Notes: generated by a model from the letters alone, not told the origin. Shown: positions 1 to 24,305, counted from the stretch's first letter. The stretch is DNA of 64,000 bases from a virus (IMGVR_UViG_3300029288_000057:1-64000), one strand, 5' to 3'. Translations and numbers: made by a program.

Positions 1-653
1 AAAACCTTCAGTTTCTCAAATGAGTTATTTAAATATTGCGGAGAAATAAACTCTTTTCCTTCGCTGTCCACAAGAAATGTTCCCAAACCAAAATCGAATC
101 CAGCGATTTTACCCGTCTCGAATCCAACTTTTAATTTCATCTCCTGTTCCACAGAAAAAATGATATATATCTCTCCTTTGTGATTTCTTTTTACAGTTAA
201 GGTTTTTATATTCCCTTCGAAATCTCTGCTGTTAAAATATTTGTATTTCTTTTTATTTATGATGATTTCATTTTCCTTCTGGTCAAGCTTATATCCCGCC
301 TGCTTTAAAGTGAATGATTTATATTTATATCTGCTTTTAAACGATGGAGGAGAACATCTGACTTTCTTCTTTAAATTCGAGAAGAACAATTTATATGATT
401 TATCAAGGCGGTCTGTGATGTCTTGGATTGCCTGGGAACCCAAATCTTCCCATCTGGTCATATATCTGTGCTTAATCTTCGTCAGATGCTTCTGTAGGTC
501 ATATTTGCCGATATTCTTCTTATATAATTTATAATACCTGTTATATAAAGCAATACAATGGTTGTATACCTCGGAATATAATTCTATATCCTGAACCAAT
601 ACTTCGTTCTTGCGGCTATTATTATACAACTTGTATTTATATGACCTTATCAT
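1..653 (-). CDS. tnpB: IS200/IS605 TnpB RNA-guided endonuclease, 3' part beyond window edge
   Basis: Not in the ORF track. Manual translation from ATG at 653 (ATGA overlap with the tnpA stop): MIRSYKYKLYNN...LGSQAIQDITDRLDKSYKLFF...PPSFKS...YKSFTLKQAGYKL...IAGFDFGLGTF, i.e. TnpB N-terminus plus RuvC-I GxDxG motif; open to position 1. Confidence 0.92.
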   Translation of the reverse strand, partial: MIRSYKYKLYNNSRKNEVLVQDIELYSEVYNHCIALYNRYYKLYKKNIGKYDLQKHLTKIKHRYMTRWEDLGSQAIQDITDRLDKSYKLFFSNLKKKVRCSPPSFKSRYKYKSFTLKQAGYKLDQKENEIIINKKKYKYFNSRDFEGNIKTLTVKRNHKGEIYIIFSVEQEMKLKVGFETGKIAGFDFGLGTFLVDSEGKEFISPQYLNNSFEKLKV

Positions 654-1048
654 TTATTTTTTTGTTCTTCTATATATTTTTTTATTGCTGCTTCTGAAAT
701 ATGCCCGACAGATTCACAATAATAACTTCTTGTCCACAAGGTTGGCAGTTTGCTTTTTAAATGTGGGAACTCACCTCTTAATTCATGAGATGTATATCCC
801 TTTAATTGCTGAACGATGAAATGAGGACTGTCCACTGGGCTTGCCTTTATAAACAAATGAACGTGGTCTGGCATTATTCCCATGCGCTCAATTTTAATGC
901 CAATTTCTTTAGACTTACTTTCTAACAAAAAAAACAATCTGCTGCTTACTTCTCCTGTTAACACAGACCTCCTGTATTTAGGACACCAAATTAAATGATA
1001 TCCTATGTTATATACTGATTTGTTGCTATGTGTCCATCTTTTATTCAT
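650..1048 (-). CDS. tnpA: IS200/IS605 Y1 (HUH) transposase TnpA
   Basis: YHLIWCPKYRR, HUH motif DHVHLF, LWTRSYY, and C-terminal helix with the catalytic Tyr (KKYIEEQ). Confidence 0.97.
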   Translation of the reverse strand: MNKRWTHSNKSVYNIGYHLIWCPKYRRSVLTGEVSSRLFFLLESKSKEIGIKIERMGIMPDHVHLFIKASPVDSPHFIVQQLKGYTSHELRGEFPHLKSKLPTLWTRSYYCESVGHISEAAIKKYIEEQKNK

Positions 1049-1108
1049 AGTATTTCTCTGTCATTTGTATATAAATATAACAAAATTTTGTTTATTTAAC
1101 AAATATTT

Positions 1109-1137
1109 CGTAACTTTGTTTAAATATTTTCGTATAA
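1109..1137 (+). promoter_or_regulatory. Outward-facing class-2 promoter (CGTAAC-N16-CGTATAA) overlapping a host-type TTTG...TAACTTTG, inside the IS left end
   Basis: Motif and spacing match the class-2 copies elsewhere in the window. Confidence 0.55.
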
Positions 1138-2260
1138 ATTAACAAATTTAAGAAACATTAAGCCAATTCATCTCACAGCTAAAGCTCGTGGGCTTTCTTG
1201 GAAACTTATCGTAAACCATAGTTATGAACAACGACAAAAAAATAAACGGGCTTCAACATAAAATCTATGGTGAGATTTTAGATGAGCAAAAAAAGATTAC
1301 AAGGCATATTGATGCTGTAGAGCATGCAAGGATTGTTCGTGGAGCACTCAAAGAAAAATTCCCAGAGATAAAGTTTAGAGTACGAAGTAGTAGTTTTGCT
1401 GGCGGAAGCGCTGTAGATGTTTGGCATGTTGGCGGCAAGATAATTCACGTAAAGCATAAAGAAATAACAGAATTCGTAAGAAAATTTAATGGATACAGAG
1501 GGGACTTAATGGATAGCATTTATAATGTAGGATTCGAATGGAAAAACGAAAGATTATGTGGTGCGACCTTTTGTAGTTATCAAGGCGGAACAGATAAATA
1601 AAACATTTCTTTAATTTTATAGCATAACATCAAAAAATCAAACATATGGTATTCGGAACAACATACTGCAGCATATCTCACCTTCCCATTGAAGATGGTG
1701 ACAAATGTGTTTTAATTCCTTTGGGATTTAGAATGCAAAGTGACTTCAGCAGGGGAAATTATGCAGACATAAACTGTTTTGCCTATCTACACACATTCAT
1801 AGCAAGACCAGTCATTGTTAAATATGGGGGCAATTACTCCGAATGTAATTATTGGGAAACTACCGATTACCACAAAGCAGGAGAAGGATATCAGGATTAT
1901 GAAATGTATATGCTTGTCCATTATAAATTCTATCAAAAGATTCTTGAGAATTTTGATTTAGATTTCTTGAAGAAATCTGGAAGTTTGCCTTTGTTTAACA
2001 CTGTATATCCTTTGTGGGAGAAAGTGCAGAGCAATAAGAATCTTGTGCACTCTGGTTGGTCTTATAGGATGGGAAAAGGCGAGATAACAGCAGAAGAGCT
2101 TAAGAATCTTTTTCTTGAACATTCTCCAGAAGAATGGATTATTGAACTTTATAAAGTTGCTTGGTTCATGGGACAAATGGGAATTGCTCCGCATCCAACA
2201 TTCTGTAATGACCAGAATGAAACAGGCAAAATATATGAAAAAATGCGTAAAGAGTCTAAG

Positions 2261-2289
2261 TGAAACTTTTTGACAGTTTTCTCGTATAA
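2261..2289 (+). promoter_or_regulatory. Class-2 (ECF/SigW-like) promoter TGAAAC-N16-CGTATAA
   Basis: Exact motif just upstream of ORF 2313. Further + copies at 15965-15993, 18422-18450, 22732-22760 and 32747-32775, all with 16-nt spacers. Confidence 0.8.
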
Positions 2290-2312
2290 TAAGATATAAA
2301 AACTTTATTAAA

Positions 2313-2681
2313 ATGAGAAAGCCTGACAATAATTTCCCCGAAAAAAACGTGCTGCTTTTAAACCTTAAAAGCGAACCGTTTAAAGTAATGGTCACAGGTG
2401 AGAAAAAGATAGAATACCGTGAGGTAGGCCAGTGGATAAACTCTAGGCTCTTCGATAAAAACGGTAATCAAAAGAAGTGTGACTATGTTAAGTTTATACT
2501 TGGATATAGTGGCAAAAACCCATTCTTCTATGCGCCATTCCTTGGTGTTGAAAAAATAGAAAAAGCAGATGAAGAATACAGCAACGGCCTGTCTGTTAAA
2601 TTTAACAGTGAACGGTGGGGAATTAAATTGGGCGACCCCATTAAAATAGGAAACATGCGCTTAGAAGACGTGAAAAAATAA
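2313..2681 (+). CDS. ASCH-domain protein
   Basis: LLLNLKSEPFKVMVTGEKKIEYRE...W..RL...YVKFILGY matches the ASCH GxKxxExR signature. Confidence 0.8.
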   Translation: MRKPDNNFPEKNVLLLNLKSEPFKVMVTGEKKIEYREVGQWINSRLFDKNGNQKKCDYVKFILGYSGKNPFFYAPFLGVEKIEKADEEYSNGLSVKFNSERWGIKLGDPIKIGNMRLEDVKK

Positions 2682-2730
2682 TGCCGATAGACTTGCAGCT
2701 ATAAAAGAACTAACGATAAATTTTAATACA

Positions 2731-2925
2731 ATGGAAGAAATAACAATTTACAAATTTCAACTCGAAGCAATAAAAGAAGCTTTGCGAGTTACTGCTAATA
2801 TCCACGAAAGTAGGAATAAAGCAAAAGAAGGTAGAACGTGCCACGATAGGATGGTAGCACAGGCCGAAAAGTATGCTGAAAATGCTTTGAAAGGTGAAAA
2901 AGATGTTGAAGTACGGTATATGTAG
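2731..2925 (+). CDS. Hypothetical protein, paralog of 20355..20537
   Basis: Shared IYxFQ...I...LR.A / DR...Q....NAL pattern. Both copies are immediately followed by an attC-like site. Confidence 0.7.
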   Translation: MEEITIYKFQLEAIKEALRVTANIHESRNKAKEGRTCHDRMVAQAEKYAENALKGEKDVEVRYM

Positions 2926-2931
2926 TATTAC

Positions 2932-3051
2932 TGCTAACGTTTGCGTGTATGAAACGTTGTTTAATAAAACTTAATTTGGAATACAAAATTTAATAATATG
3001 GAAAATGTTAATTTGAAACAGAATAACAATGTTTTATACACGCTGTTATGT
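2932..3051 (+). repeat. attC-like hairpin site 1
   Basis: TGCTAAC ... GTTATGT ends; arms GCGTGTATGAAACGTTGTT (2943-2961) and AACAATGTTTTATACACGC (3025-3043). Confidence 0.7.
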
Positions 3052-3237
3052 GCTGTAAATTTTAGATTTAAGAAATACATAAATAAACTTTCAAATAGAA
3101 TTAAATGTGAGCATAATCAATATCAAGACATATATTGTAATGGCACTGGTTTATTTATGTATGGGAGATGTATTAATTGTGGTAAAAAGCGATATTGGAG
3201 TAATTAGTTTATAGCACATAACAAGAATTTCTATTCA

Positions 3238-3270
3238 AAAGTCCCCACCCAAAATGGGGACTTTTTTTTA
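3238..3270 (+). terminator. Intrinsic terminator
   Basis: AAAGTCCCCA-loop-TGGGGACTTTTTTTT. Confidence 0.85.
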
Positions 3271-3280
3271 CTATTTATAG
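3271..3280 (+). promoter_or_regulatory. Class-3 (putative late) motif CTATTTATAG
   Basis: Identical 10-mer just upstream of ORFs at 3296, 35883 (35873), 37815 (37783) and 52026 (52003); variant at 36561. Confidence 0.6.
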
Positions 3281-3295
3281 GAAATTTCTATTCCT

Positions 3296-3733
3296 ATGAA
3301 AAATCTACTTAGAAAAACCATAAGACAAATTATATCCGAGGCCATTGAAATGGATACAGTTAAGTTAACTCAGGAAGATTTAGTTGAAGTCCTTAAAGGA
3401 TATTTAACAGGAGCTATCTGGACAGAAGGCGAAACCACAGACAAATTCACCATCGACGACCTTAGCGAAGACTCTCAGATACAAGCCTATATAGACATTA
3501 AAGAATTTATTAAAAATGCTGGAGAGGATGCAGTTTCCGAAGCTGTAGAAGAACACGGACTCTCACACTTGGGAATGGACATTTGGCTCACAAGAAACAG
3601 CCATGGAGCAGGGTTCTTCGACCACAGTTATGAGCATGAAGATGAACTTATGAAAGCTGCTCATGATTTGAAAGGTGTTGAATTGTATGTTGGAGACGAT
3701 AATGAATTACATTTCTCAAACTCCCATATGTAA
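3296..3733 (+). CDS. Hypothetical acidic protein with LRKTIRQIISE N-terminal motif (candidate internal head protein)
   Basis: N-terminal motif shared with neighbours; body contains a GxDxWLTRNxHGAGFxD motif. Confidence 0.65.
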   Translation: MKNLLRKTIRQIISEAIEMDTVKLTQEDLVEVLKGYLTGAIWTEGETTDKFTIDDLSEDSQIQAYIDIKEFIKNAGEDAVSEAVEEHGLSHLGMDIWLTRNSHGAGFFDHSYEHEDELMKAAHDLKGVELYVGDDNELHFSNSHM

Positions 3734-3742
3734 AATTATTGC

Positions 3743-4411
3743 ATGAATCCTCTCAGACTCTACATAAGGAAAATTATAAAGGAATCCTTTGAAAATCCGA
3801 CTTTACAATTGCCAACAGTGATTATAAATAAAGTTTTTCATGTTGGGAGTTTGGATTTAAATAAAAAGTCAAAATTTTCATTAGAAGGAAGTGGTTTGTC
3901 TGTTTCAGTTAACCCAGATGAGTGGAGAAGCATAGCACAATTGGAAAATGAAGACTTATACACGCTAGTCAAAAGGGGTGGAACATTTATAAATGCTCAC
4001 AAGTTAAAGAAAGTACAAAAGAATGATATAGTCCAGTGGGGTGTGGATAATGGATATGTTTTACAAGAAGAAACATTCCGTGTTTATTATTATGATGAAG
4101 AATTAGAACAAGAAGTATATTCTGAATTCCCAACGTATGAAGAGGCAGAACAAGAGGCAGATGATGTTAATGATATAAAAACAAATAAGGGTGGTATTAA
4201 ACCAACTGAAAAATTAAAATCCGATACAAAACAAAGCACAATAGATACTTCACAAACTTTTGATTTGCTATTAACAATATATGCTGAAATGAACACAAAT
4301 TTTGATGGAGTTTGGTGGAAGGATGCGTTAGATGTGTCAAAATACTCAGCTCCAAGAGGAGTGATTTTCAATTCAAAATTAAATGAGTGGACAATATCAA
4401 AAAACAATTAA
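3743..4411 (+). CDS. Hypothetical protein with MNPLRLYIRKIIKE N-terminal motif
   Basis: ORF track; first ~35 nt nearly identical to those of the gene starting at 4413. Confidence 0.7.
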   Translation: MNPLRLYIRKIIKESFENPTLQLPTVIINKVFHVGSLDLNKKSKFSLEGSGLSVSVNPDEWRSIAQLENEDLYTLVKRGGTFINAHKLKKVQKNDIVQWGVDNGYVLQEETFRVYYYDEELEQEVYSEFPTYEEAEQEADDVNDIKTNKGGIKPTEKLKSDTKQSTIDTSQTFDLLLTIYAEMNTNFDGVWWKDALDVSKYSAPRGVIFNSKLNEWTISKNN

Positions 4412-9667: not shown

Positions 9668-10289
9668 AAACACACTACATGTACAAAAGTTTTAAAAACA
9701 AACGAAATATTTTCTATAAATAAACGTAGATTTAGCGAATACCAGGGATGTTAATAATTTATAATATATGGAAAAGAGTTGCACGGCATTGGTGGTAGAT
9801 TTAAGCGAATTGACCAAGGTTTGCGGATATTTTAATCCAGATACCCCTGTCAACAATTCCTACGGATGTAATCATCCTGACTGTGAAGAGAAAGAAATAG
9901 TAAGAATTTGTAAAGATGACGAACATGAAAGATTCCCCAAAAACATTGAACAAAGAATATTGTTTATTTCATTAAGAAAGAAATATGGAAGCTGGAAAAA
10001 CATTGAAAGGGTTATAAATACAGATGAAGGTAAAATTTTTGCTGATAACATTAGATATCATAAGATTCATGAGCCTGATTTTATATCCCAATTTGGATGT
10101 AAACTGCAGGGAAAATGTTATTCTTTTTCATGTCCAATTGCAAGTGAATGTGATTTGGAAGATTTGAAAAATCATGATACTTATTTATACAATGAATGGA
10201 GGGATTCAGATTATGCCCCTTCTGAAGGGGGAGCAGAACTTATGCTGATTACTGATGAAAAGTTAATCGAAGCACTTTCGTAGCATTGC

Positions 10290-10413
10290 CTATAACGGTT
10301 GCGTGTAAGGCACGTTGCTTACATGAAAATAAAATAGAATTGTAAATTTAATATATGAAGTAAAATGGGGAAATACAAAGAACGAAAACAATGTCCTATA
10401 CACGATGTTAGCA
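10290..10413 (+). repeat. attC-like hairpin site 2
   Basis: CTATAAC...GTTAGCA ends; arms CGTGTAAGGCACGTTG / CAATGTCCTATACACG; clearly related in sequence to site 1. Confidence 0.7.
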
Positions 10414-12386
10414 ATAGTAGCCCTTTCAAGCCTTTGAGTGTGGGGAAACTAAACGAAATAAAAGATAAAATTTATAAAGAACAATTTTTTGATTATAGTG
10501 AAACAGTAGATGCAAAAGAAGTTTTAGAATCACTACAAAACTTAAAAAACAACCCAAAACTATTAGACTATGTAATAAAATGCCTAAATCATCAAGGAAT
10601 TACGACTGTTCCTGATAAATTTTATTGTGTGGTTGTTAATGCAGAATCAAGGATGCCATACGATGAACAAATACATAATACTTTTGAAAAGTACAAACAA
10701 CTTTGTGTGGATGGAGATTTTGGATTAAAGAAACGAGACCATTTATTAAAAAAAGTATATAATGGAATTGGTGATATTGAAGACGAGATGATGAAAAATA
10801 AAGGGGAAGAAATCTTTGGATTTGGTTATACGAAATTTGAAGGCTATTCAATTTACGAACTTGGCGTGTAGGTTGTTTGAGAAATTTAGTAATGGGCTTG
10901 CCTGAAACAATTTATTAAGTGATTAGAAAACAAAGAAATAAAATCATAGTTATGAAAGATGTTAATGATGCTTATAAGCACACAATGAATGTGATTGAAT
11001 CCCTGAAAAAAAGGAGGATTGATGTGTTAATTCAAATTCCAAGAGTTATTAGAGAATCTAACAATCCAGAAGATTTAGATGTTGTAAAAGAATATAATTT
11101 ACCCGATAGGATTAATTGGCCTTGTTGGCGAAACATTCAATTTAAAATAAAAAACAAGGAGGAGGCTGAATTGGTTTCATTTGCACGAAGATATTTGGGA
11201 ATTAATGGTTGTTCTTTTGACACGGGAGCAGGATGTGGCAGTATGGATTGGGAAATAGATTGGTCTTTTAGATTTACAGGGACCGAAGAGTCCAAAGAAC
11301 GAGAAGATTTTGATGTTGTTATGGAAGATTTTTGTTTGAAGCGTGTTTAGTGCTTCTAACGAGTAGAAATATAAAAAAGGTTAAACACATGAAGCGAATT
11401 AAGGAATTAAGCAAGAAATACAACGAACATTTAAAGTCTCTTGGAATAGAGAACGAGAATGGTTGCCTATCCAATATGATGGATTGCCCACCTTCAAAAA
11501 AGAATTCCCTATTGCATGCGAGGTGGATGTGTTATGTGCTCTCAGATAGTCCGCAAGAAATGGAAAAAGAAAAGGCAATGAGATGGCTTGGTTTTATCCA
11601 AGGCGTTTTATATGCTCATGATATTTTTACAATAGACGAGATGAGAGATGATGTAAGACAAATGCTAAGTCAAGAATAATATCTATTATATTTATTGGAA
11701 AGCAATTAAACACATGAAAAAAAAAAAATTCAATAAAGACAGAAAACGACATTGCTTCTTTGAGTGCCATGAATAAAACAACCCTACACGTTCCAAAAGG
11801 CTTCCCAGAAGAGCCGGAATTTAATTATCCTCTAGATGAGATAATGCACATTATGGAAGAACTCCAATTTAGCATGATGGATTCATCATTTGATAATAAG
11901 CTTTCCAACATTCTAGTCAACTTTGAGAATAGGGTTCTTAACAAATTTAATATACCATCAGAAGAACGAAGCAATTTTGGACTAACCTGGCAACATAGTT
12001 CTGAAAATAAAATAGCAATTAAATGCAAAAATTTATTTACAGCATGCATAATGTTTGGGCACTATATGCCATATATTTTTGTTGAAGGTTTGAATAAATT
12101 TACTTTAAAGGATGGGTCAACGATTGAGTATCTTCATGAATCTGGTGGATATGTCCTAAACAATGTGGTAAGAGTTGGTGGGTGTAAATGTGAAAATAAT
12201 GATGCATGCACGAGAGAAGAAATGGGCAGTGGAGAATGGGAAGATTATTGTTGGAAATGTAAGGATGTTCGAAAATAAGTGTAAACAAACACCAAAGATT
12301 ATTGTTATATAATTAATATCTTAATTCGTTTTTTGGTTTTCTCAAATATTTTTTATATATTTACATCATTATAATTAAAATATGAT

Positions 12387-17538: not shown

Positions 17539-18088
17539 AGATATGGCAACAAAAATGGGAAAAAGAGAATTGGCAAATTGTATCAGGTGTTGGTTACAGA
17601 AGTTCGGCAGCCGTGATAATGAAACTTTTTATGCAGAAGTAATCGTAGGTGAAATTACCTGGGAGTTGTCAATGCAATATAATTACGATGAAACAGGGTG
17701 CCAACTTGAGCCATACGACTGGTGCAGAGTAAGCGGGAGCAAAACAATGTCAAACACTAGCATAGAAGATAGAACAGAAGAGGAATTGTATGATATCTAT
17801 CTTAGACTGCTTGTAATGAAACATCAGTATTAATCATATTTGTGCAAGCTGTCCTTGCACAAATAAAAAACAACTATATGAAAATCGAAGGAGAATCAAA
17901 GGAAAGCAAAAAAGGCACAACATCTTATTCTATCGTTATTACAGTATTATGTTGTATTGTTATGGGCGCAATCGGCAGAATCACTTATTTGTTGGGAGAT
18001 AAAGAAAATGCATTTGACATGGCAATTCTTGCAGAAATAGTACTGCTTATCTTATTGGGTGCAACCATCAGATATAATCAAAATTAAA

Positions 18089-18424
18089 ATGAAAACAAAA
18101 CAACCAGCTCAGTTTTCTCAAGAAGAAAAAATTAAGTTCTTGAATTGTGTGATTAGGCACATTCACGATTATGAAAAACTCGATGCGCATTTTTATATAT
18201 GCCATTATTTTGTAAAAAGAAAAATAACAAATGAAAGAACCGACTCAAGGTTAATTAAACCAATATTCCCTGAGTTGTATAAAATCATTGTACAAGGACA
18301 AAAAGAACGATGCCAAAGACTTTGTCCTCAAAGACCTTATTATGAAATGTCGGGATGGCAGGATAACGTAGAGAGACTTGCAGCCATAAAAAAACTAAAA
18401 AAAGAAATAAAAACCCCCAAATGA
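18089..18424 (+). CDS. Paralog family B, copy 1
   Basis: EEKIKFLN..I..YICHY..DSRLIKPIFPELY..W..N.ERLAA. Confidence 0.75.
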   Translation: MKTKQPAQFSQEEKIKFLNCVIRHIHDYEKLDAHFYICHYFVKRKITNERTDSRLIKPIFPELYKIIVQGQKERCQRLCPQRPYYEMSGWQDNVERLAAIKKLKKEIKTPK

Positions 18425-18498
18425 AACTTTTTGGGGGTTTTTTCGTATAATATGATATGGAAAGAAGAAGGAAATATAAACTTCGTTAAGTTATAACA

Positions 18499-18858
18499 AT
18501 GAAAAAAGACATCAAAAACCTAAAAGAATTCAAAACCCTTATTAAAAAATATAGGTCAATTACCATTGAACAGATTGAATCTGCTTATAAGAAAACTACC
18601 TCGTTTTATTTTGATGGTGAAGTGGCTTGTATACTTACAGGGTTTGGCAGCAAGTCTACATGCACGCTGTGTCATCCATATAGAGCTGGATGTGCTGGGT
18701 GTGTATATTGTGAGTTATTGGGCATAAATTATGGATGTCTTACTGAAACATATGACGAAATCCGTGTTGCGAAAAGTTCCCAAGATTTATACAATGCCAT
18801 TCAAAACAGAGCCAACTATATGGAAGATTTACTTCTTGAAAATAAATTAATAAATTAA
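18499..18858 (+). CDS. Cys-rich paralog family A, copy 2
   Basis: Same motifs as copy 1. Confidence 0.8.
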   Translation: MKKDIKNLKEFKTLIKKYRSITIEQIESAYKKTTSFYFDGEVACILTGFGSKSTCTLCHPYRAGCAGCVYCELLGINYGCLTETYDEIRVAKSSQDLYNAIQNRANYMEDLLLENKLIN

Positions 18859-19713
18859 AAACAAAATGAAAAAGTCAGTCTACAGAATTAAAACAGTTGG
18901 CTCAGCAGGAACATTAGAGCTGGAAATATTACTTGATGTCAACAGAGAGTTAACCGATACCGATAATGATAACTTGCGAGGGCATGCTGAGGGAATCATG
19001 AGGTCTTTAGCAGAAGAAGCTATAAGGCTTGACCCCCAAAGCAAAATAAATGCCCAATTAGAAAAAGAAGGAATTCTTTCTCTATTCGGAGACAGAGCAA
19101 TTTTTGTTGAAGAAATACCAAATGGTTATTGCTCTTCCTATTGTTGCAAACACCTGCCATGGTTCGTCGTAACCACATCCAAAGGAAGAATTAAAATAGG
19201 ATGGCGTAAGCGTGTTATTAATATTGATTGGTCTGATTCTATCATTGAGGGAAAATCAGAAGAATTATTCCCAGACGAAGATGTTACCAAATTCGATAAA
19301 ACCATTCACGCCTGGAGTTTGGGAAAGGCCAAAGAATATATTGACTTACTTTTACAACCAACAATGAAACATTTGAATAATTTCTAAAAACAAAAGAACA
19401 TGAAACAAATGATAGGAAAAACACTCTCAAAATTTGATGATAAACAAAAAATTGAAGTATTAAAGGAGATTCTTAAGAGATTTAAAAAGAAAGCCCATAC
19501 ATCACGCTTTATGTGTCTGACATTTCAAGCTATTACAGGAATCAATTTAGATGAAACCTTCATTTATATTCCAGAACTCCTGAAATATAAACCAAAAGGA
19601 AATGATTTTGCATGGTTTAATTCCTCTGGATTAAGTAGAAGAATAATACATAAAAAGAAAATTAGAATTCTGAAAAAAACAATTAAAGATATAAAATCAA
19701 AAAACAGAATCTC

Positions 19714-20133
19714 ATGGATAAAAAGAATATTAAAAACCTAAAAGAATTCAAGGCGCTTATTAAGAAATACAGGTCGATTACACCAATGCACATCGATATA
19801 TCTTGTAATGAGGTTGTTATAATTAATGGAAATGTGTTTGATGGTACGAGAATTGCATTCTTTTTAACGGGATTTGGTAAAATTAGTTCATGCACACTCT
19901 GTATTGCTATTAATAAAAGAAGCGTCTTTAGTGACTGTGACGGATGTGTTTATGATGAATTAACAGTAACTTGTTGTTATCGTGGCAACAACAAAGAGAC
20001 CTACAATTCAATAAAGAGCGCAAAGAACTCCAAACAGCTTCTAAAAGCTTTTCGAGACAGGGCTGACTATATGGAGAATCTCCTCATCAAAAATGAATTA
20101 ATAAAACCAAAGGCGAAGCCTGTAAAGAAATAA
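19714..20133 (+). CDS. Cys-rich paralog family A, copy 3
   Basis: Same motifs as copy 1. Confidence 0.8.
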   Translation: MDKKNIKNLKEFKALIKKYRSITPMHIDISCNEVVIINGNVFDGTRIAFFLTGFGKISSCTLCIAINKRSVFSDCDGCVYDELTVTCCYRGNNKETYNSIKSAKNSKQLLKAFRDRADYMENLLIKNELIKPKAKPVKK

Positions 20134-20218
20134 ATTCCTATTATGACAGAAGAAGGAATAAGTCTTTTAGAAAGATTTATGGCTAACGAAAGAAGAAAAA
20201 TACTACAGCGACGGAGAG

Positions 20219-20353
20219 GAATGCTGCCGAGGAGACAATAAAGATACATATGAAAAAATATCTGAAAGCACAACTTTCATACAACTCTTGAAAGCTTTCC
20301 AGGATAGAGCGGATTATATGGAAAGATTACTTGAAAATAATAAAATTAAATAG
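20219..20353 (+). pseudogene. C-terminal remnant of a fifth family A copy
   Basis: ECCRGDNKDTYEKISE...QLLKAFQDRADYMERLLENNKIK*; in-frame stop upstream and no start codon. Confidence 0.7.
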
Positions 20354-20544
20354 AATGAAAGAACTTAAGATTTACGAGTTTCAAGCAAAACAAATCGAAG
20401 ACACATTTAGGTTGGTCGCAAGGGCTCTACAAAGCAAAAATAAAACAACCTCTCTTGACAGAGATATAATGCAAAGTTGGGAGATGATTAAAAATGTTTT
20501 GACAGAGAAAATAGATACTCATGTGCCACGGGTTTAGTGCTGAT

Positions 20545-20677
20545 GTATAATCGTCCGCAGGTATATTCCAGTTACAGAATACAAAACACGAAAGATATCA
20601 AAATAGTAATAACTTAATACGAGAACAAATGAACAAATTACACGAAAACCCGCAATTGAATATGCCTGTTGTTAGCG
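20545..20677 (+). repeat. attC-like hairpin site 3
   Basis: GTATAAT (degenerate)...GTTAGCG ends; arms CAGGTATATTCCAGTT / AATTGAATATGCCTG. Confidence 0.6.
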
Positions 20678-20823
20678 TGAGTGATATTCATTCTTTTTGG
20701 GATTGGATGAACAACCAACCTAAAAACTACATGGGCGGTGAGTTTCTTTATGATATAAAAGGATATTATAAACGACTAAAAGAAGGTAAAATGTTTGATT
20801 ACTGGTTAGAACGTGTTTATTCA

Positions 20824-20953
20824 CGATAACGGCTGCAAACATGCGTTGTAGCGGACTTTGAAACGCTACAGTATCAGCCGAGATAAATTTGATTAGAAGT
20901 ATAAACTTAATATTAACCACTACCACCGCTATAACGTATGTTTGTTGTTATAG
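20824..20953 (+). repeat. attC-like hairpin site 4
   Basis: CGATAAC...GTTATAG ends; arms CAAACATGCGTTGTAGCGG / CCGCTATAACGTATGTTTG. Confidence 0.72.
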
Positions 20954-20989
20954 CACGTTTTTGAGCGATGGGAGTACAAAATTAAAGTA

Positions 20990-21166
20990 ATGGCAGAATT
21001 TAGATTTGAAGGTTATACATACGATTTATGGATAAAACCTTGGAAAAAGGGGAATAGAAAATATGAGGCTTTGAGGTGGAAAACAGGTCTTAAATGTACA
21101 TGGGGAAGAATACCTTATGAACTATTTTTAAAGATGAAAAAAAATGGACTTCATCTCGTGCGTTGA
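20990..21166 (+). CDS. 58-aa basic, Trp-rich hypothetical protein (cassette ORF, below ORF-track cutoff)
   Basis: MAEFRFEGYTYDLWIKPWKKGNRKYEALRWKTGLKCTWGRIPYELFLKMKKNGLHLVR*, lying between site 4 and the half-site ending at 21181. Confidence 0.6.
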   Translation: MAEFRFEGYTYDLWIKPWKKGNRKYEALRWKTGLKCTWGRIPYELFLKMKKNGLHLVR

Positions 21167-21213
21167 CAAATGTACTATAACAAGCATTTTAAAATCATTA
21201 AACAAAAAACCAA

Positions 21214-21636
21214 ATGAAAGAAGACATCAAAAACCTAAAGGAATTCAAAGCTCTCATTAAGAAGTACAGGTCAATAACTCCTGAGAGGATTGAGAATGCT
21301 TATAAGAAAATTCCTATAACTTGTGGAAACGTGTTCGATGGGGGTAAAGTTGCGCAGGTCTTAACGGGATTTGGCAGGGTTAGTTCATGCACGCTCTGTA
21401 TTTCTATTAACAAAAGAAGTATTTTTTCTCCCTGCCAAGGATGTGTTTATAATGAATTAACGCTGAATGATTGTTATCGTGGTGAAGGAAAAGAGAGCTA
21501 CTATAAAATAAGACACACAAATAGTCCCAAACAGCTTATAGAGGCTTTTGAGAAAAGAGCCGACTACATGGAAGACCTGCTTATTAAAAATGAATTAATT
21601 GAACCAAAGGCGAAGCCTGCTAAAAAACAAAAATAA
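21214..21636 (+). CDS. Cys-rich paralog family A, copy 4
   Basis: Closest to copy 3 (GNVFDG...LTGFG.xSSCTLCI.INKRS). Confidence 0.8.
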   Translation: MKEDIKNLKEFKALIKKYRSITPERIENAYKKIPITCGNVFDGGKVAQVLTGFGRVSSCTLCISINKRSIFSPCQGCVYNELTLNDCYRGEGKESYYKIRHTNSPKQLIEAFEKRADYMEDLLIKNELIEPKAKPAKKQK

Positions 21637-22775
21637 AATGGAAAAAAGGAAATGGATATACAATTGGCGAGTCATCGACTTGCTTAAATTGGTAAAAGAA
21701 ATTGGGGGTAAAAACTACCAAAAGCACCCAATTTATAAAGAGTGGGAATATCAAGTTGAGAATAGAGCAAAATCTAATGATAGCGCCAACTTAGAATGGG
21801 TGGCAGAAAATGAAGAAACTCCATTAATAAATGAATTCCTTTTGTCTAATGGGTTCTCTAAAGGAGAAATGGTGCTGTTTTATGTTAGTTGGTAAAAAAC
21901 ATTTAATAAAATAACTGACCTGGAAGAACTTTTATAAACTCAATTCAAAAAACATGAAATACAAATCATTAAATAGTCTTTCCATTGCTGATTTAATAAG
22001 CATAAAGCAAGAGTTAATACGTGATTATGACTTTTTAGAACAAAGCAAAGAAAAAATACACCGTTCAGAAAAAGAACAAGAACGATTAAACCGTTATTCA
22101 AAAGATATTCGAATAATAAAAGAACATCTCGCACACAGATTAAGACCATATAATATCTTTCAAGTCTTACAATCCTAATCAAATTTTATAACCCCACGAA
22201 AATAACACAAATCCTATGAAAAACAACACAAAAGAATCTAAAGCTCTCTCATTGTCAGATATTGCTAAAGAAATGTATCGAGCAATAAATTTTACACTTA
22301 ATTATGTCAATAGGGAAAATAGAAAGGAAAATGATTATGAAGTTTCTTTCCTTTATCCAGCCAATAACCTATCATATCAAAAGCTATTAAAAGCGGCTAA
22401 AGCATATGAGAAACTTAAACGAAATAAAGAGAAGTTAGCTCCTCCAACAAACCCTCTTGATGAAGGCTTTAGAGTTCGACCCAAGGAAAGAGTTTAATAA
22501 AATTAAAACCTACAAAATAACACAAATCCTCCAAAAATATGACAAACAAAACCGAAACCTTTAAAAGGGGTGACAAAGTGGTAATGCATACCTGCTTCGA
22601 AGCAACCCTTCCAAAATATAAAGATAAACTCTGGATTTGCGAAACAGATAGCTTTATGAACCAATCAAATCAAGACGTGGTGTTCTTGGAAAACTTCAGC
22701 GGATACTTCGCAACAGAATTCCTCCAACGTGTGAAACTTTAGGGGAATTTTTTCGTATAACATAAATAAAACTCT

Positions 22776-23141
22776 ATGAGAATAAAAGCCGAGTTAACAC
22801 TGGAAGAAAAAATTAAACTTCTAAACAAAATAATTAAAGAAATAAAGTCCCATGATAAAAATGCGAACTCGTATTATATATGCATTTATTTGGAAGATAA
22901 AGAAATAATAGAAAAATGCGACTCAAAACTAATTAAACCCATATTTCCCGAATTATACGAAGTAATCGTAAAAAAACAAAACCAAAGAAAAAAAGCTCTG
23001 GAGAAACTTCTGAGTTGTTTCACCACTCAACATAAATATCCCATCAATCAATATAAAATCGGAGCATGGACATGTAACAAAGAAAGATTGGCCGCAATGG
23101 AAGAACTAAAGAAAAAGATTCAAAATAAACAAATAACATAA
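22776..23141 (+). CDS. Paralog family B, copy 2
   Basis: LTLEEKIKLLNKII..YYICIYLEDK..DSKLIKPIFPELYEVI..IGAWT.NKERL. Confidence 0.8.
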   Translation: MRIKAELTLEEKIKLLNKIIKEIKSHDKNANSYYICIYLEDKEIIEKCDSKLIKPIFPELYEVIVKKQNQRKKALEKLLSCFTTQHKYPINQYKIGAWTCNKERLAAMEELKKKIQNKQIT

Positions 23142-23954
23142 AATAAATTATCATGGGACTAGACATTTCAGTTTATAAAGTAATGCCAATAGGCAATAGA
23201 GTGCCCGAAACAGTGGAACACTTTTTTACTTTAAGGGAATCTTCAGAACTCAACGTTTTTAAACACTTATCCTTTAAGAAGAAGAATCAGTATTATAACA
23301 TGAAAAAAGCTATTAAGGATTTGGGATATAAATCAAAAGATTTGGAATGTACAGGTTATAGCTTTGGGCAAGATATGGATTGTAACTTCCTTAATAAAAA
23401 ACATCTTCTTTATAAAGCATATGCCTACCTAAACACAATTTGGAGCAAAACCTATTTTAATACATTTGAAGAGCTCGAAAAATCAGAATATTACAAAACT
23501 TTCGTTTCCAAATTTCTTGATACCCTAAAAAACGAAGGATGGAAAGAAAATTATTACTACTTTGCATCTGGGTCTAATACCTATTATCATAACCTGAGAG
23601 ATGCTTTTGATTTCTGTCACGATAAAATACTTGTTAGAATATCAACCCCCCCATTGCTCACCAAAAATGAAACCTGCATCGCCATAGAAGAAGTGGGATA
23701 CCAAAGAAAAGGCGCCAATAAACAATTCTATGAAGACAATATGTGGAGCGGCCAATGTGTAATCGATAAGAAAACACTAATTGACCACTGGAAGAAATAC
23801 TTCTCCCATGCCACGCCAGAAAGCAAGGGTGGATTCGGAAGCGGAGTGGAATACAAACAAATCGATGAGGAAATGAAAAGAAACTTTAAAGAAAATATCA
23901 TCGACAAATTTATCGAAGGTGAAACCTTTGTGTGCTATCATTAAAAGCCATATC

Positions 23955-24305
23955 ATGAAAAAAGAACTTTCCTTAACAGAAAAAATTAATCTTCTAAACA
24001 AAATAATTAGAGGAATAAAGTCCTATATTAAAAACTATAGTGGTTCGTATTTTATATGCCATTATCTGGAAGATAAAAAAATAATAAAAGGAAGCGACTC
24101 AAGATTAATTCAACCCGTATTTCCCGAATTATATGAAGTAATCACAAAAGCGCAAAAACGAAGAAAAGACCAATTGATAGATGCTCTTGGTTGTTTCCTT
24201 CCTCACCCTGAAAAAGTCATTTTTTATTATGAAATCGGAGCGTGGACACACAACAAAGAAAGACTAGAAGCAATGCAAGAACTAAAGAAAAAAATCCAAC
24301 AATGA
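23955..24305 (+). CDS. Paralog family B, copy 3
   Basis: Highly similar to copy 2. Confidence 0.8.
   Translation: MKKELSLTEKINLLNKIIRGIKSYIKNYSGSYFICHYLEDKKIIKGSDSRLIQPVFPELYEVITKAQKRRKDQLIDALGCFLPHPEKVIFYYEIGAWTHNKERLEAMQELKKKIQQ

Follow-up and report, generated by a model that had tools for sequence, protein, structure and literature searches.

Short open reading frames (ORFs) that alternate with inverted repeats, as they do between 20355 and 21181 of this phage genome, raise the question of whether such units are mobile gene cassettes, and of what kind of enzyme would move them. Integrons are the textbook means by which bacteria capture and reshuffle single genes, and are defined by the IntI family of integrases. 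The window analysed here covers the opening 64 kb of an IMG/VR virus record that has 290,886 bases and 33% G+C and is rated 91% complete. The original prediction had described tandem integron-like cassettes with attC-like sites at 20545-21181. Below, R'' denotes the box that precedes a TAAC core and R' the box that follows a GTTA. The features of this stretch (locus B) are given here.

20355-20537, plus strand: X_B, a 60-aa paralogue of the ORF X_A at 2731-2925, with an R''-type end TTAGTGCTGATGTA (sequence comparison)
20548-20674, plus strand: site 3, decayed; core TAATC (20548-52), arms at about 20555-72 and 20652-68, GTTA at 20671 (covariance model R1, 53.4 bits, E 3e-8)
20629-20829, plus strand: B1 cassette ORF, 66 aa, whose stop codon TAA belongs to the next core (76% amino acid identity to L002:6001-6201)
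20827-20950, plus strand: site 4, intact; TAAC-ggctg-arm(20836-54)-71-nt loop-arm(20926-44)-tt-GTTA(20947) (model R1, 80.1 bits, E 1e-13)
20990-21166, plus strand: B2 cassette ORF, 58 aa (relatives in contigs L142 and L144)
21161-21181, plus strand: R'' box and closing TAAC core (21178-81) of cassette B2, the half-site of the original prediction (pairs with 20947-20966)

The stretch 20548-21181 consists of two cassettes, B1 (site 3 and the 66-aa ORF) and B2 (site 4 and the 58-aa ORF). Site 4 has 19-nt arms that are complementary at 17 of 19 positions, and its spacers show the predicted asymmetry of 5 nt versus 2 nt; a loop motif of the site family, AAACTTAATATTAACCAC, lies in its loop at 20903-20920. 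Site 3 is weaker, with arms that match by eye at about 12 of 16 positions around an altered core. The B1 ORF begins in the loop of site 3 and reads through the right arm and the GTTA. An orthologue of site 3 was found in a related contig (L002:5921-6046), where the B1 relative is located downstream of a DNA methyltransferase gene in a row of ten sites within ~5 kb. Comparison of B1 with this relative gave a pN of 0.13 and a pS of 0.57, and B1 is under purifying selection. The corresponding dN/dS for B2 is unreliable, as its ungapped alignment probably spans an indel. The likeness between the window and L002 runs from TAA(T)C (20548) to TAAC (20830), and the flanks are unrelated on both sides.

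The B2 gene has a different kind of relative. In L142 and L144, which encode proteins with 79-80% amino acid identity, there is no site, and DNA homology is confined to the ORF. Because the gene is site-less in those contigs and only the ORF is homologous, cassette B2 looks like a captured resident gene, a case that bears on how cassettes are born. Downstream of the closing core of B2 lies a resident gene for a Cys-rich paralogue (21214), and upstream X_B abuts a degraded copy of the same family (20143-20353).

A covariance model (R1) was built from 41 sites, all from other phages, with the sites of the window left out, and was run with filters off, as default filters missed three of the four window sites. 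Four matches were obtained in the 64-kb window, with E-values spanning 1e-8 to 1e-13, and the next best match scored 18.7 bits; these are evidently the four sites of the original prediction. The remaining 227 kb of the genome gave no match at E up to 0.01. The covariance scan thus bore out the attC-like sites as real (53-80 bits), with site 4 the clean case and site 3 the weak one. A search of the whole window against Rfam returned only three tRNAs and nothing at the sites, no GenBank phage was matched by the region or by a master site, and neither Pfam nor PHROGs contained a family that matched any cassette ORF.

A genome-wide repeat scan detected a second copy of the cassette design at 2731-3221, in the order of a paralogue of the ORF 20355-20537, TAAC (2935), arms complementary at 17 of 19 positions, GTTA (3045), and an ORF starting in the loop.

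2731-2925, plus strand: X_A, a 64-aa ORF from a family of small proteins that is widespread (27 relatives, of which some lie in full cassettes with the same R'', as in L150 and L159)
2935-3048, plus strand: site 1; TAAC-gttt-arm(2943-61)-loop-arm(3025-43)-t-GTTA (model R1, 73 bits; arms 17/19)
2998-3207, plus strand: A1 cassette ORF of 69 aa containing two pairs of Cys (unmatched in Pfam and PHROGs)
3218-3221, plus strand: TAAC core that closes cassette A1; no hairpin follows (R'/R'' pairing)

The 3' end of X_A is a cassette-type R'' box (ATGTAGTATTACTGC, 2919-2934) and no hairpin lies upstream of the gene, so that X_A is a 5'-truncated cassette; ATGTAGTATTACTGCTAAC is also present in L002, after an unrelated methyltransferase gene. 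The A1 cassette extends from 2939 to the core at 3218-3221. It takes its ATG from the loop of site 1, and its closing core is followed by a hairpin and T run resembling an intrinsic terminator at ~3240-3272. The remaining site, site 2, is listed here with its neighbours.

9768-10283, plus strand: a 171-aa ORF with the R'' box GTAGCATTGCCTA at its 3' end, in which TAG serves as the stop codon (sequence)
10293-10410, plus strand: site 2; TAAC-ggttg-arm-loop-arm-at-GTTA (model R1, 57.8 bits, E 4e-9)
10365-10871, plus strand: C1 cassette ORF, 168 aa (relative in L218, 67% amino acid identity)

No hairpin was found 5' of the 171-aa ORF. The loop of site 2 contains the ATG (10365) of C1, and at the 3' end of C1 the R'' box and core have decayed to TAAT at 10891, with loss of the partner of the site 2 R'. 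The relative of C1 in L218 retains R''-TAAC followed by another site.

The wider family was gathered by a pattern scan of IMG/VR followed by a hairpin scan. At least 250 distinct sites were collected, and arrays were present in dozens of large IMG/VR contigs; L008, for instance, has 13 sites within 8 kb, and L007 has 11 within 6 kb. The layout comprises TAAC, a spacer of 4-6 nt, an arm of 17-25 nt, the loop, the second arm, a spacer of 1-3 nt and GTTA, and the window sites fit it; the consensus is R''(GTAGTATTG-N4)-TAAC-ggttg-arm-loop-arm-tt-GTTA-R'(N4-cAGTAcGG). Sites fall into two size classes, ~85 and ~120 nt. The original prediction had each site begin at or just after a stop codon; in the family, the stop codon is usually 9-12 nt before the core, within the conserved R'' box GTAGTATTG-N4-TAAC. 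Taken together, the scores and the shared layout indicate that an integron-like cassette family is widespread in large phages and that the window sites are members of it.

Alignment of the 41 sites from other phages with RNAalifold gave 18 arm pairs, 16 of which showed compensatory changes, and one G.U pair was retained in 39 of the 41. Among the mismatches in the arms, 168 of 206 set a G of the 5' arm against a T of the 3' arm, and their distances from the core are fixed. In the window, sites 1 and 4 carry such G.T wobbles at arm positions 8/9 and 14 (8 and 14 in site 4), in agreement with the prediction of wobbles on the top strand. This bias implies that the structure would fold on the coding strand and not on its complement, and the longest ORF was on the strand of the site in 82 of 86 cassettes. 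The top strand of site 1 folded at -14.6 kcal/mol (z -2.9 against shuffles) and the bottom strand at -10.2; the top strand of site 4 gave -15.8 (z -2.3). At both sites the long hairpin formed on the top strand and not on the bottom strand. Site 3, folded as single-stranded DNA, did no better than shuffles (z +1.4).

A loop motif, AACTTtcAAATTAccac, is common to the hairpin loops of many phages (for example L004, L007 and L008), often 5-15 nt before an ATG, and may act as a promoter of the cassette, as a leader or as a binding site for a protein. It was rejected as a general promoter of the window, where it occurred 5 times against 9 expected.

Integron cassettes that have existed as circles are recognised by complementarity between the end of one unit and the start of the next, and the original prediction had claimed this signature here. 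For each GTTA, the following 16 nt were compared with the 16 nt that precede a TAAC. When the R' of one site was set against the R'' of the next site no more than 700 nt away, 10.4 of 16 positions formed Watson-Crick pairs, against 5.5 for random pairs and 5.4 for the two boxes of the same site. Among the listed neighbours separated by no more than ~450 nt, almost every pair matches at the first six positions, and a G.T is usual at position 7. Within the window, the R' of site 1 (3045-3064) pairs with the R'' at 3203-3222 at 15 of 20 positions plus one G.T, and a cross repeat that matches at 15 of 16 joins 3044-59 to 3208-23. Similarly, 20947-20966 after site 4 pairs with 21162-81 at 15 of 20 positions plus two G.T, within a cross repeat of 23 nt that is 78% complementary (20945-67/21161-83). 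In both cases the partner was the best within 4 kb, so the signature holds for cassettes A1 and B2. The strings quoted originally were located exactly, GTTATAGCACGTTT at 20947 with AAATGTACTATAAC at 21168 (12/14) and GTTAGCGTGA at 20671 with TCACGATAAC at 20821 (9/10 complementary). The 9/10 match, that of site 3, is by itself not significant, and leaves B1 a weak case in the window; the L002 orthologue matches at 13 of 14 positions (by eye). For C1, with its decayed 3' end, no such pairing was found.

To locate the exchange point, site pairs were drawn from different contigs and sorted by the flank that they shared. When only the upstream flank (40 nt before TAAC) was shared, the hairpins were no more alike than in random pairs (60 pairs; median similarity 0.48, none at 0.85 or above, against a median of 0.48 and 3.7% for 1500 random pairs). 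When only the downstream flank (40 nt after GTTA) was shared, the median rose to 0.91, with 67% of 79 pairs at 0.85 or above. Since hairpin similarity tracks the downstream flank only, the hairpin belongs to the gene that follows it. These comparisons place the exchange at the TAAC core, between R'' and the hairpin, and on the other strand at G|TTA at the right end of the site, as in integrons. On this particular the original prediction of exchange at G|TT does not hold: related phages break at the TAAC core to the left of the hairpin, both in these 60 and 79 pairs and in the core-to-core likeness with L002, and the hairpin goes with the downstream gene and not the upstream one.

We searched for the enzyme in the arrays of related phages. 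A PF00589 region was found exactly once in 10 of 25 array-bearing contigs, mostly in an ORF of 265-295 aa, and 9 of the 10 genes were co-oriented with the array and started 56-1020 nt after its last site. The 15 array contigs lacking a recombinase gene are mostly fragments, and two of them are rated complete (G006 and G026). The array enzyme scored best against the XerA model, yet below the cut-off of every model, and matched the integron-integrase model TIGR02249 in two stretches, also below the cut-off. Compared with VchIntIA, it lacks ~48 residues at the IntI-specific domain and keeps the catalytic motifs, and we therefore classify it, on sequence, as a short Xer-like tyrosine recombinase devoid of the IntI-specific insert. 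Directly before the recombinase gene is a conserved junction that has no hairpin, R''-TAAC|TAtTATATATA (L132-L140), often followed by further copies of TAAC; it was present even in L140, where the hairpin scan found no hairpin nearby. This TAAC|TAtTATATATA junction is a candidate counterpart of attI.

The integrases of Cellulophaga phage Ingeline and of Polaribacter phages Freya and Leef are 35-41% identical to the array enzyme, and no sites were found around the integrase genes of Polaribacter phage Freya_10 and Cellulophaga phage Ingeline_1. The genomes of Freya_1 to Freya_10 (MT732463-MT732472) range from 43,978 to 48,920 bases, with the integrase at positions from 83 to 4180, which suggests a variable block upstream of the integrase in these isolates. 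A Crocinitomicaceae MAG (G027) encodes three relatives of the phage recombinase (43-46% identity), two of which have a site of the family within 2-3 kb in other orientations (L194 6432-9632, L195 9095-11730); a prophage, phage DNA placed in the wrong bin, or a version of the system residing in the chromosome could each account for it. A pattern scan of the genome collection gave 12 matches, mostly in small MAG contigs with mixed labels that are maybe mis-binned phage DNA, and says little about hosts.

Neither a tyrosine nor a serine recombinase, nor any relative of the array enzyme, was found in the 291-kb record studied here (91% complete), which also has no TAAC|TATTATATATA junction above chance. 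The predicted lack of an integrase in the window is thus confirmed, with the addition that relatives do carry an enzyme beside their arrays; a search for tyrosine recombinases yielded the Xer-like gene in relatives and none in this genome, and an IS200/IS605-type tnpA gene (650-1048) that had been overlooked originally shows no link to arrays. Sites 3 and 4 are 153 nt apart in a record with no integrase, and thus qualify as a cluster of attC sites lacking an integrase (CALIN). With neither a recombinase nor an attI-like site, and with site 3 decayed, the cassettes are an orphan, CALIN-like remnant, movable only in trans, if at all. Only four sites at three loci, with about six small ORFs, are present in the 291-kb record, and one site and one cassette end (site 3 and the 3' end of C1) have decayed, so the suggestion that the system supplies the accessory genes of this phage in general does not hold. 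Three ORFs that precede sites (X_A, the 171-aa ORF and X_B) have R'' ends and no hairpin, and together with the loss at the 3' end of C1 this indicates that at least some units of the window arrived or decayed by other routes.

It is likely that 20548-21181 represents cassettes of a phage integron-like system run by an Xer-like enzyme, and that they are orphans in this genome. The cassette unit comprises a 5-nt spacer, the left arm, the loop, the right arm, a 2-nt spacer, GTTA, the R' box, the ORF, the R'' box and TAAC, often with the start codon within the hairpin loop. Once single-stranded, the coding strand would fold into the hairpin, and the G.T wobbles, which turn into C.A mismatches on the other strand, would mark the strand to be used. 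We infer that the short Xer-like tyrosine recombinase would cut at TAA|C, and that the resulting circle would be joined to another TAAC core or to the hairpin-less, attI-like TAAC|TATTATATATA beside the recombinase gene. In the circle, R'' and R' would pair and lengthen the hairpin, which would explain why the R' of one site matches the R'' of the next. An enzyme of this kind may have acted on the cassettes of the window.

An alternative is that the hairpins are chiefly RNA elements of the mRNA, serving in processing, stabilisation or control of translation, the last by exposing the start codon in a loop. Cassette shuffling would then follow incidentally from homologous recombination between repeated regulatory modules, in the way suggested for the PeSL (promoter/stem-loop) motifs of T4-type phages. 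There, small accessory genes in plastic regions of large myoviruses are bracketed by stem-loop motifs, and both shuffling and mini-circles have been reported (PMC2839356, PMC4122927); among phages, PeSL offer the closest precedent for shuffling. The strand able to fold is the coding strand and thus that of the mRNA, and the G.T bias would suit folded RNA just as well; the mismatches, at fixed places, are compatible with G.U pairs, and the loops contain start codons and a conserved motif. PeSL, however, are conserved promoter-terminator modules exchanged by homology, whereas the arms of the phage sites vary from one to the next with compensatory changes and are not conserved direct repeats. Because PeSL exchange needs homology between conserved motifs, it misfits breakpoints that fall on a 4-nt core between unrelated sequences, where there is no homology to recombine. 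Nor does this explanation account for a tyrosine recombinase gene and a hairpin-less TAAC junction linked to arrays, or for the pairing of the R' of one site with the R'' of the next, for which a promoter-terminator module has no evident use. We consider it unlikely.

The strand-specific hairpins, and the position of each unit 3' of a TAAC and ending in TAAC, would also suit single-strand transposons of the IS200/IS605 kind, in which the top strand would be cut out by an HUH (Y1) transposase and placed 3' of TAAC. A possible source of such an enzyme lies 1.9 kb upstream of site 1.

650-1048, minus strand: tnpA of IS200/IS605 type (profile match to Y1_Tnp, E 1e-38)
3-653, minus strand: tnpB-like ORF, cut by the contig end (adjoins tnpA)

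Of 25 other contigs with arrays, only 1 contained Y1_Tnp, whereas 10 of 25 had the array-linked tyrosine recombinase, and on this count the HUH transposase was rejected as the cassette enzyme and the tnpA-tnpB pair was treated as an unrelated insertion sequence. In addition, each unit has one hairpin and not a distinct pair of left and right ends, and the tnpA-tnpB pair looks like an ordinary insertion sequence at a contig end, and may be the reason why the assembly breaks there (3-1048). A transposon origin of the units is thus very improbable. Chance inverted repeats in AT-rich intergenic DNA might have been invoked for site 3 alone, given its fold and its 9/10 cross match; for the family as a whole the covariation in hundreds of homologous sites and the model E-values (1e-8 to 1e-13, well separated from the next match) refute this idea, and its probability is negligible.

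The preferred reading, cassettes moved by an Xer-like recombinase, shares much with integrons: imperfect hairpins, ~85 or 120 nt long, that have AAC...GTT cores, a spacer left unpaired beside the core and a variable loop, as in attC; complementary cassette ends; single-gene units in arrays; one strand preferred for folding; and, in relatives, arrays that are bordered on one side by a tyrosine recombinase gene and a primary site lacking a hairpin. In classical integrons, IntI recombines attC as a folded bottom strand. Sedentary chromosomal integrons have uniform sites of ~120 nt. The differences support the original view of a distinct system, with an Xer-like enzyme in relatives in place of IntI. 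In the classical integron, an IntI with its extra domain is encoded next to attI and divergently from the cassettes, whereas the phage enzyme is a 265-295-aa Xer-like protein that lacks the IntI-specific insert and is co-oriented with them. A classical cassette is an ORF followed by its own attC, exchanged at G|TT of the right-hand core; in the phage cassettes the hairpin precedes the ORF and may hold its start codon, so that gene orientation relative to the site is reversed. In the phage sites, the R helix is 14-20 bp long with a gene-specific part of 6 nt, compared with 7 bp in attC, and G.T wobbles and the 5-versus-2-nt spacer are found where attC has extrahelical bases.

Single-strand hairpins are used by other enzymes as well. 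XerCD acts on the folded single-stranded attP of phage CTX, with integration of the whole phage at the host dif site by host enzymes. Here, too, a Xer-type tyrosine recombinase is proposed to use a DNA hairpin of one strand as its substrate, but the CTX case involves no arrays of gene cassettes and no phage-borne enzyme. IS200/IS605 and REP/RAYT elements likewise have top-strand hairpins and insert next to a fixed tetranucleotide; they differ in their HUH enzyme and their two different end hairpins, and no association with arrays was found.

Clusters of attC-like sites in virulent phages that have no integrase are also a point in common with the CALINs of Qi et al. (2023), who described 17 attC clusters lacking an integrase in phages, showed that IntI1 recombined 5 of 6 tested sites, one of them from P12002L, and treated these CALINs as ordinary integron parts borrowed from bacteria (PMC9892861). 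Polaribacter phage P12002L has short sites of the same TAAC-hairpin-GTTA layout before methyltransferase genes, and the published phage CALINs therefore overlap the present family. The Xer-like enzyme, the mirrored arrangement of the cassettes, the long, gene-specific R helix and the occurrence across large phages are not described in that study (PMC9892861), and our literature search found no paper on them.

In its wider form our reading is held with less assurance, although we still favour it: large phages, probably of Bacteroidota, would possess their own integron analogue, in which an Xer-like enzyme captures circles at TAAC|TATTATATATA and shuffles coding-strand hairpins at TAA|C, with G.T wobbles replacing extrahelical bases as strand pickers, the hairpin doubling as the leader of its gene, and orphans moved in trans during co-infection. 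If a parallel system of this kind exists in large lytic phages, gene capture through hairpins has originated, or been reassembled, at least twice, and a second and simpler pair of enzyme and site is available for single-strand site-specific recombination. Such a system would also explain the trade in small accessory genes among big phages, including the DNA methyltransferase genes seen in relatives (L002 and the CALINs of Qi et al., 2023). The window itself shows stranded cassettes: four sites, one of them eroded, and no enzyme.

Some smaller observations were made at these loci. The A1 ORF contains a perfect 14-bp inverted repeat (3075-3088, ATACATAAATAAAC; 3149-3162, GTTTATTTATGTAT). The bases after the two closing cores are similar (3218-3232, TAACAAGAATTT; 21178-21192, TAACAAGCATTT), and this likeness may reflect chance or a favoured flank for insertion outside arrays. 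The surroundings of locus B (18059-24305) consist of two small-protein families in tandem repeats, neither with a Pfam or PHROGs match. The second of these, of 121-128 aa, is encoded at 18059, 22776 and 23919. The Cys-rich family, of 119-140 aa, is encoded at 18499, 19714 and 21214, with the degraded copy at 20143-20353, and locus B is wedged between two of its copies.
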